Shown piece by piece: positions 48,791 through 49,615 of a stretch of DNA of 64,000 nt. Positions within the stretch are counted from its first letter, which is position 1; the number at the start of each line of letters is the position of its first letter. The notes below the pieces were generated by a model, which ran no database searches, was not told the DNA's origin, and worked only from the letters and a program-made list of their open reading frames with translations. Location: assembly GCF_003334815.1 (NCBI RefSeq), contig NZ_QOWO01000004.1, one strand, 5' to 3'. Origin of the DNA: Escherichia coli. GTDB taxonomy: Bacteria; Pseudomonadota; Gammaproteobacteria; Enterobacterales; Enterobacteriaceae. The translations under genes were made by a program, and so were the position numbers.

Positions 48791-49615
48791 ATGACCGAAT
48801 TTACAACTCTTCTTCAGCAAGGAAACGCCTGGTTCTTCATCCCCAGCGCCATCTTACTTGGTGCGCTTCATGGCCTGGAACCAGGGCACTCAAAAACGAT
48901 GATGGCGGCGTTTATCATCGCCATCAAAGGCACCATTAAACAGGCGGTGATGCTCGGACTGGCAGCAACTATTTCGCATACCGCAGTGGTCTGGTTAATT
49001 GCCTTTGGCGGGATGGTGATCAGCAAGCGCTTTACTGCTCAATCAGCAGAACCGTGGCTCCAGCTGATTTCCGCAGTGATCATTATTGGCACCGCGTTCT
49101 GGATGTTATGGCGTACCTGGCGCGGCGAACGCAACTGGCTGGAGAATATGCACGAGTATGATCATGAACATCATCACCACGATCACGAAGATCACCACGA
49201 CCATGGACATCATCACCATCACGAACATGGCGAGTATCAGGATGCCCATGCACGAGCCCATGCCAATGATATTAAACGACGCTTTGATGGTAGAGAGGTC
49301 ACCAACTGGCAAATTTTGTTATTTGGCTTAACAGGTGGTCTTATCCCCTGTCCGGCAGCAATTACCGTGCTGTTGATTTGCATTCAGTTGAAAGCCCTGA
49401 CACTGGGCGCAACACTGGTCGTCAGTTTCAGCATTGGCCTGGCGTTAACGCTTGTCACCGTAGGCGTTGGCGCAGCAATCAGCGTTCAGCAGGTCGCAAA
49501 ACGCTGGAGCGGATTTAACACTCTCGCTAAACGCGCCCCCTATTTTTCCAGTCTGTTGATTGGCTTAGTCGGTGTGTATATGGGCGTACATGGCTTCATG
49601 GGCATAATGCGATAA
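48791..49615 (+). CDS. rcnA: Nickel/cobalt efflux permease RcnA
   Basis: 274 aa; TM helices flank a histidine-rich loop (HEYDHEHHHHDHEDHHDHGHHHHHEHGEYQD). Confidence 0.93.
   Translation: MTEFTTLLQQGNAWFFIPSAILLGALHGLEPGHSKTMMAAFIIAIKGTIKQAVMLGLAATISHTAVVWLIAFGGMVISKRFTAQSAEPWLQLISAVIIIGTAFWMLWRTWRGERNWLENMHEYDHEHHHHDHEDHHDHGHHHHHEHGEYQDAHARAHANDIKRRFDGREVTNWQILLFGLTGGLIPCPAAITVLLICIQLKALTLGATLVVSFSIGLALTLVTVGVGAAISVQQVAKRWSGFNTLAKRAPYFSSLLIGLVGVYMGVHGFMGIMR

Follow-up and report, generated by a model that had tools for sequence, protein, structure and literature searches.

Does the histidine-rich loop that the nickel/cobalt efflux gene rcnA encodes in Escherichia coli change its length from strain to strain and, if so, along which route and with what meaning for the protein? 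The question was raised by an earlier note on a 64,000-nt stretch of E. coli DNA (hereafter the window), made from the letters alone, which had described a segment of near-repetitive codons within this gene and had proposed that it may expand or contract in frame. The locus is followed here from the gene itself through the composition of its loop to the alleles present in other E. coli genomes, the wider RcnA/NicO family and, finally, the typing markers with which the loop can be compared.

The rcnA gene and its surroundings

The open reading frame bearing the loop is E. coli rcnA (Table 1). At the DNA level it is 100% identical to rcnA as annotated in E. coli strain 52F4, the encoded protein shares 98% identity with RcnA of K-12, and it matches both the Pfam NicO family PF03824 (E 3.1e-69, residues 13–273) and the NCBIfam model NF007454 (557.5 bits, cutoff 195). 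RcnA of K-12 reportedly gives Ni/Co resistance by efflux, a result ascribed to Rodrigue and co-workers in 2005. The genomic context, too, is the one expected for an RcnA/NicO protein, with a divergent rcnR, motifs in the intergenic region and rcnB downstream. The rcnR product scores 197 bits (cutoff 138) against its NCBIfam equivalog and the gene is so annotated in every fetched rcnA locus, while rcnB is annotated at the equivalent position in two of them (L011 and L012). The two TACT-G6-N-AGTA motifs between rcnR and rcnA—20 nt apart from start to start, with 0.01 matches expected by chance—are taken here to be operators of the RcnR type.

The neighbourhood further includes the genes thiM-thiD, which adjoin rcnR and are preceded upstream by a TPP riboswitch at 48210–48306 on the minus strand (Rfam RF00059, 71 bits vs a gathering score of 54). 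On the other side, rcnB is followed directly after its stop codon by a G+C-rich hairpin, CCCCCTCATGATGAGGGGG, at 50179–50197. The hairpin is preceded by a run of A, the opposite strand having a run of T, and it may separate rcnB from the fimbrial genes converging on it as a terminator acting in both directions. Promoter and terminator scans yielded about as many sites as were obtained in shuffled sequence.

Table 1 Features of the rcnA locus in the window (helix limits are those predicted)
Feature	Position	Strand	Basis
rcnR, Ni/Co-responsive repressor, divergent from rcnA	48398–48670	−	ORF; NCBIfam equivalog NF011613
Two TACT-G6-N-AGTA motifs, rcnR–rcnA intergenic region	48719–48733, 48739–48753	+	exact matches
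rcnA, Ni/Co efflux protein, NicO family (825 nt, 274 aa)	48791–49615	+	ORF
Predicted pre-loop helix, residues 83–120 (transmembrane helix 3 and extension WRTWRGERNWLEN)	49037–49150	+	hydropathy; AlphaFold2
CVN007 forward primer site	49051–49071	+	exact match, 0 expected by chance
His/Asp/Glu tract H121–G147, length-variable	49151–49231	+	protein and DNA alignments; loop table; AlphaFold2 coil
12-nt exact direct repeat ACATCATCACCA, copy 1	49168–49179	+	
12-nt exact direct repeat ACATCATCACCA, copy 2	49207–49218	+	
C-terminal part of the loop, EYQDAHARAHA, predicted start of an amphipathic helix, length-constant	49232–49264	+	alignment; consensus; model
Predicted post-loop helix, residues 172–199, with the family-conserved GGLxPCPAA	49304–49387	+	conservation; model
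CVN007 reverse primer site	49399–49419	−	exact match
rcnB (yohN), accessory periplasmic protein of the efflux system	49834–50172	+	ORF

Composition and repetitiveness of the loop

The peptide HEYDHEHHHHDHEDHHDHGHHHHHEHGEYQDAHARAH corresponds exactly to residues 121–157 of RcnA (nt 49151–49261). Codons 120–158 (49148–49264) include 18 for histidine (10 CAT and 8 CAC), five for aspartate and five for glutamate, the share of histidine being 18 of the 39 loop residues vs 4 of 235 in the rest of the protein (Fisher p = 5e-14), and hydrophobic stretches flank the loop at residues 88–107 and 175–215 of the hydropathy profile. The picture drawn in the earlier note—some 40 codons dominated by histidine, with Asp and Glu codons among them, between predicted transmembrane helices—was thus accurate.

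The AlphaFold2 model of the window RcnA, built on 39 diverse homologues and having a mean pLDDT of 80, places one helix before the loop (residues 83–120) and two after it (152–164 and 172–199, the latter in the segments 172–182 and 188–199). The helices score 80–95; residues 121–151 are modelled as coil with a pLDDT of about 48–60. The loop is, according to the model, most likely a disordered stretch between transmembrane helices 3 and 4. Its tract is most variable at 49151–49198, i.e. H121–H136; EYQDAHARAHA at its C-terminal side is nearly invariant in the E. coli alleles, A158 being conserved at 90%, and EYQDAHARAH lies within the helix motif DAHxxAHAxxIxxRF, the majority consensus of 39 family members, the model having a helix at 152–164. 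A sequence search among solved structures returned spurious His-tag-like matches only, and a Foldseek comparison of the model with the PDB gave nothing with E < 0.1.

Since histidine and Asp/Glu codons make up the loop, its DNA amounts to a degenerate codon repeat. Tandem Repeats Finder recognizes an imperfect 18-nt period at 49172–49228 (3.2 copies, 74% matches, score 72), the longest exact repeat within the loop is the 12-nt sequence ACATCATCACCA, and any hexamer occurs in at most two consecutive copies. A pure CACGAC/GACCAC tract of several copies, of the type known from the Salmonella locus STTR5, is absent from the window allele and present in O157:H7 (4–9 copies). When self-similarity was assessed at offsets of 3–39 nt, its maximum over all offsets showed no excess over 5,000 codon-shuffled versions, neither in the His/acidic core (p = 0.91) nor in the whole loop (p = 0.18), so that the periodicity would follow from codon composition and not from a preserved tandem array. 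The DNA had been called near-repetitive, and this stood in part: the imperfect 18-nt period is there, but a pure tract of more than two hexamers, or a periodicity above that of codon shuffles, is not.

It should be added here that the two antisense open reading frames over the loop (49083–49253 and 49106–49312, minus strand) are regarded as by-products of low-complexity sequence. Similarly, the Rfam match to mir-598 at 49157–49226 on the minus strand—the only one inside the loop in a search over 48000–50600—is below threshold (23 bits vs a gathering score of 69) and is dismissed as a chance match in a low-complexity region.

Length of rcnA across E. coli

The gene was found in 5,366 of 5,426 complete E. 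coli genomes. Allele lengths were taken from two systematic samples, drawn in even steps down two different rankings and giving 118 full-length genes, which is a sample and not a full count. In 99 of these 118 genes (84%) rcnA is 825 nt long, 17 (14%) are in-frame length variants of 786, 804, 810, ~822, 840, 846, 849, 852, 858 and 864 nt, and the remaining two carry single-base indels. Overall, with an allele of 870 nt included, eleven in-frame lengths besides 825 nt were encountered, ranging from 786 to 870 nt.

To locate the differences, 14 loci were fetched—11 in-frame length variants, the 825-nt allele of K-12 and two frameshifted genes. Eight of the length variants and the K-12 allele were aligned with the window at both the protein and DNA levels, the three other variants were compared through their extracted loop sequences, and a loop table was compiled from the window and 12 fetched loci, two of which could not be parsed. 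In all ten in-frame length-variant alleles examined in this way the indels are inside the loop; all multi-base indels are bounded by M120 and E148, and the membrane segments, where aligned, hardly vary. The alleles differ by 3, 6, 15, 21, 24, 27, 33 and 39 nt, every one a multiple of 3, with the O157-type alleles having, in addition, the residues DNE inserted after G147. When 120 representatives of E. coli and Shigella protein clusters were compared, the stretch equivalent to H121–H157 measured 30–63 residues; it is 24 residues long in the product of the 786-nt allele. The proposal that the loop may vary in frame between strains, together with the alignment of rcnA across strains suggested as its check, was therefore borne out: loop length is not perfectly conserved, and what had been read from a single sequence proved correct. 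A phase-variable on/off locus is not what was found, the loop indels keeping the frame and frameshifts occurring only outside the loop. The window itself holds the interrupted, modal and length-stable form.

Substitutions add to this picture. Of the 14 SNPs that separate the window allele from the equally long one of K-12 (L009), the 117 nt of the loop account for six (odds ratio 4.7, p = 0.008), four of which are nonsynonymous (E122G, Y123H, H125Y and D134H). The hypervariability of the loop thus extends from its length to substitutions.

Several observations concern the gene as a whole. In L013 (strain NMBU_W05E18) and L014 (isolate 58), the annotation marks rcnA as frameshifted, in each case owing to a single-base indel in a short homopolymer well away from the loop (gene position 138 and 102, respectively), which could reflect either real inactivation or sequencing error. 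No match to rcnA was obtained in 60 of the 5,426 complete genomes. In strain ZF31 only the first 111 nt of the gene are left, adjoining yehA, which suggests a deletion, and one genome carries a plasmid-borne copy of rcnA.

Lineages and repeat purity

A lineage-specific query of 136 nt matched 325 genomes, mostly of O157:H7. Among the 52 scorable sampled entries the GACCAC unit was present in four copies in 6, five in 4, six in 24, seven in 13, eight in 4 and nine in 1 of them. The rcnA genes of this lineage measure 840–870 nt, and their alleles differ solely in the number of GACCAC units, in 6-nt steps and with identical flanks. A second lineage has a pure (CACGAG)n tract and genes of 804, 810 and 822 nt, 43 genomes having at least 99% identity to the 810-nt allele.

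The interrupted allele of the window and K-12 type, on the other hand, has the same length in all 99 samples. The rare alleles derived from it come about via longer units: removal of the 39 nt that separate the two copies of ACATCATCACCA turns the window loop exactly into that of the 786-nt allele (strain 2015C-3121), and the 840-nt and 849-nt alleles represent additions of 15 and 24 nt. Most of the length variation thus sits in lineages with pure hexamer tracts, and it is repeat purity, not histidine content, that predicts which rcnA alleles change their length.

Conservation in the RcnA/NicO family

Among the 39 diverse homologues, positions H27, E30, P31, G32, H33, K35, H63, G179 and G183 are conserved at 90% or more, with P186 and C187 being invariant. 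All residues conserved at this level are found in helices and all are present in the window protein, which also contains the motifs HGLEPGHSK (helix 1) and GGLxPCPAA (helix 4). None of the tract histidines from H121 to H146 reaches 90% in the same set. Concerning the segment between the helices, it covers 25–261 residues (median 64) in 70 full-length representatives of clusters at 50% identity and is nearly always rich in histidine, with runs of HD, HG, HE or HS.

About a dozen RcnA relatives possess a conserved insert of ~100 residues within the His loop that is not of low complexity (carriers P0121, P0123, P0125, P0129, P0131, P0134, P0136, P0138, P0144, P0160, P0163, P0167, P0168 and P0260); it exhibits the motifs IDTGHG..ELSVFE.GVPP.FRL, G[FY]LES and IPEPH.F. 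In one of the carriers, P0121, the stretches that align with RcnA of the window are 74% identical to it, and no Pfam match was obtained for the insert.

Origin and meaning of the length variation

Based on the above results, the reading preferred here, to which a probability of roughly 80% is given, is that RcnA carries a disordered metal-binding loop that changes its length by slippage or by recombination between short repeats, that this loop is a known VNTR and that the window has a stable allele of it. The loop most likely binds Ni/Co ions, a role that is plausible for it, and, as far as prediction goes, it probably lies on the cytoplasmic side. It would bind or collect the ions with low specificity near the entrance of the transport path, feeding or buffering a site built by the helices, the path itself probably being formed by conserved residues of the membrane helices, namely H27, E30, H33 and K35 of helix 1, H63 of helix 2 and P186/C187 of helix 4. 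Changes in length would be tolerated because no individual residue of the loop is required and the transport residues are in the membrane helices; loop length may be nearly neutral within bounds. In the pure tracts—(GACCAC)n in O157:H7 and (CACGAG)n elsewhere—units would be gained and lost in frame via slipped-strand mispairing, which fits the pattern of alleles, whereas in interrupted alleles short direct repeats would recombine, the 39-nt deletion between the 12-nt repeats being a likely example. In the HE and DH lineages with their linked flanking SNPs, a part of the between-lineage diversity may go back to old divergence or allelic exchange.

That the length differences are artefacts of assembly or sequencing is extremely improbable. 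Low-complexity repeats are prone to misassembly and two of the 118 genes have single-base indels that are possibly sequencing errors, but those indels fall outside the loop, the differences within it are all multiples of 3 nt, the alleles are common to many independent complete assemblies per lineage (e.g. the 24 sampled O157:H7 entries with exactly 6 copies), and published MLVA schemes size the same locus by PCR. It is also unlikely that the diversity stems mainly from homologous exchange of old diverged alleles between lineages instead of slippage in place. Outside the repeat, the HE- and DH-type alleles do differ in a linked manner, e.g. by the AAAAGACGATTT variant, by the inserted DNE and by the HEHHHHDHEHHQ block on the 5′ side, and SNPs are concentrated in the loop; since the flanking differences are linked, exchange of old alleles probably contributes between lineages, and in this role it is compatible with slippage. 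It cannot, however, explain the differences in unit number alone within O157:H7, where the flanks are identical, and Salmonella lost 54 nt of the tract, corresponding to (HD)9, in a single in vivo passage experiment.

The view that the capacity or affinity with which RcnA binds metal is set by the repeat number has several observations on its side; under it, lineages with pure hexamer tracts could rapidly adapt their Ni/Co tolerance, and the alleles would reflect selection by metal exposure. The copy numbers in O157:H7 are bell-shaped around 6; STTR5 alleles concentrate in the mid-range, for which its authors suggest a possible functional constraint (PMC5183578); selection by metals has been speculated upon (PMC3391293); the loop is much expanded in cable bacteria (PMC11247825); and the window and K-12 alleles show a 4.7-fold higher SNP density in the loop, most of whose SNPs change the protein. 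Adaptive tuning is nevertheless considered unlikely: a length-dependent bias of slippage would produce a mid-range distribution without selection as well, one length is found in 84% of the sampled E. coli from very different hosts and sources, the alleles track lineage and not habitat, and neither a functional comparison of alleles nor one of loop length with metal resistance was found in the literature searched. For the pure-tract lineages, O157:H7 and Salmonella, it might also be imagined that Ni/Co efflux or buffering capacity is determined by how many His-Asp or His-Glu units the loop contains, the locus serving metal tolerance as a fast-mutating in-frame 'tuning knob' instead of being a neutral marker and the window allele being fixed against change, although this appears quite improbable. 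Should loop length prove to alter metal handling, the traces of selection on this transporter could be sought in the MLVA data widely collected for CVN007 and STTR5. Slippage and short-repeat recombination in a loop of tolerated length remain the explanation favoured here.

Comparison with known systems

The generic E. coli MLVA scheme, that of Lindstedt et al. 2007 as cited in PMC8143711, PMC3407997 and PMC3519732, includes the locus CVN007, with the forward primer ACCGTGGCTCCAGYTGATTTC and the reverse primer ACCAGTGTTGCGCCCAGTGTC (PMC8143711, Table 1). Both primers match the window exactly and delimit an amplicon of 369 bp that spans the loop, for which the published formula, (369−314)/18, returns allele 3. 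The rcnA loop is thus the locus CVN007, and its length polymorphism is already known and in use for strain typing; in the CVN007 literature searched the underlying gene is not named, the link to rcnA being made here through the primers, by which a hitherto anonymous marker is assigned to a particular feature of a protein. Allele 3 is the usual value in published profiles, and in non-O157 STEC the locus is of low diversity (alleles 3–4, Nei index 0.10), in agreement with the dominance of the 825-nt allele. The nominal repeat of CVN007, 18 nt, agrees with the period that Tandem Repeats Finder recognizes in the window. The loop has the properties of a VNTR, i.e. length differences between strains within conserved flanks, but its real alleles mostly do not differ by the whole 18-nt steps that the scheme assumes. 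The locus CVN014 was also considered and rejected, as no paper mentions it together with rcnA or yohM and its high variability inside ST131 does not suit the stable 825-nt allele.

In Salmonella enterica, the (CACGAC)n VNTR of yohM/rcnA serves as the typing marker STTR5, or Sal16 (PMC5183578, PMC3391293). It shares with the E. coli locus the orthologous gene, the same loop, the His-Asp dipeptide repeat and in-frame steps of 6 nt, the (GACCAC)n of E. coli O157:H7 being the same hexamer in another register. It differs in copy number, with about 7–26 copies in five strains of Salmonella Typhimurium vs 4–9 in O157:H7 (PMC3391293), and the window allele is without any such pure tract. The MLVA locus 27 of Klebsiella pneumoniae, (CATGGT)n in 0–19 copies, is again a hexamer VNTR within rcnA used for typing, albeit in another species and with a unit, CAT-GGT, that would—if in frame—encode His-Gly and not His-Asp or His-Glu.

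A further parallel is offered by the RcnA of cable bacteria (PMC11247825). The same source counts 17 histidines in the loop of E. coli RcnA, reports a DeepTMHMM prediction that puts the loop of a homologue of RcnA, said to have the canonical RcnA architecture, in the cytoplasm, and treats the mechanism of RcnA as incompletely understood, an exporter and a loop-mediated chelator both being possible. The cable-bacteria protein and that of the window are built alike, with a membrane core of the NicO type and, in the centre, a loop rich in histidine for which a cytoplasmic position is predicted; the loop in cable bacteria is, however, 100–123 residues long with 33–53 histidines, and the variation it represents is one between taxa, not within a species.
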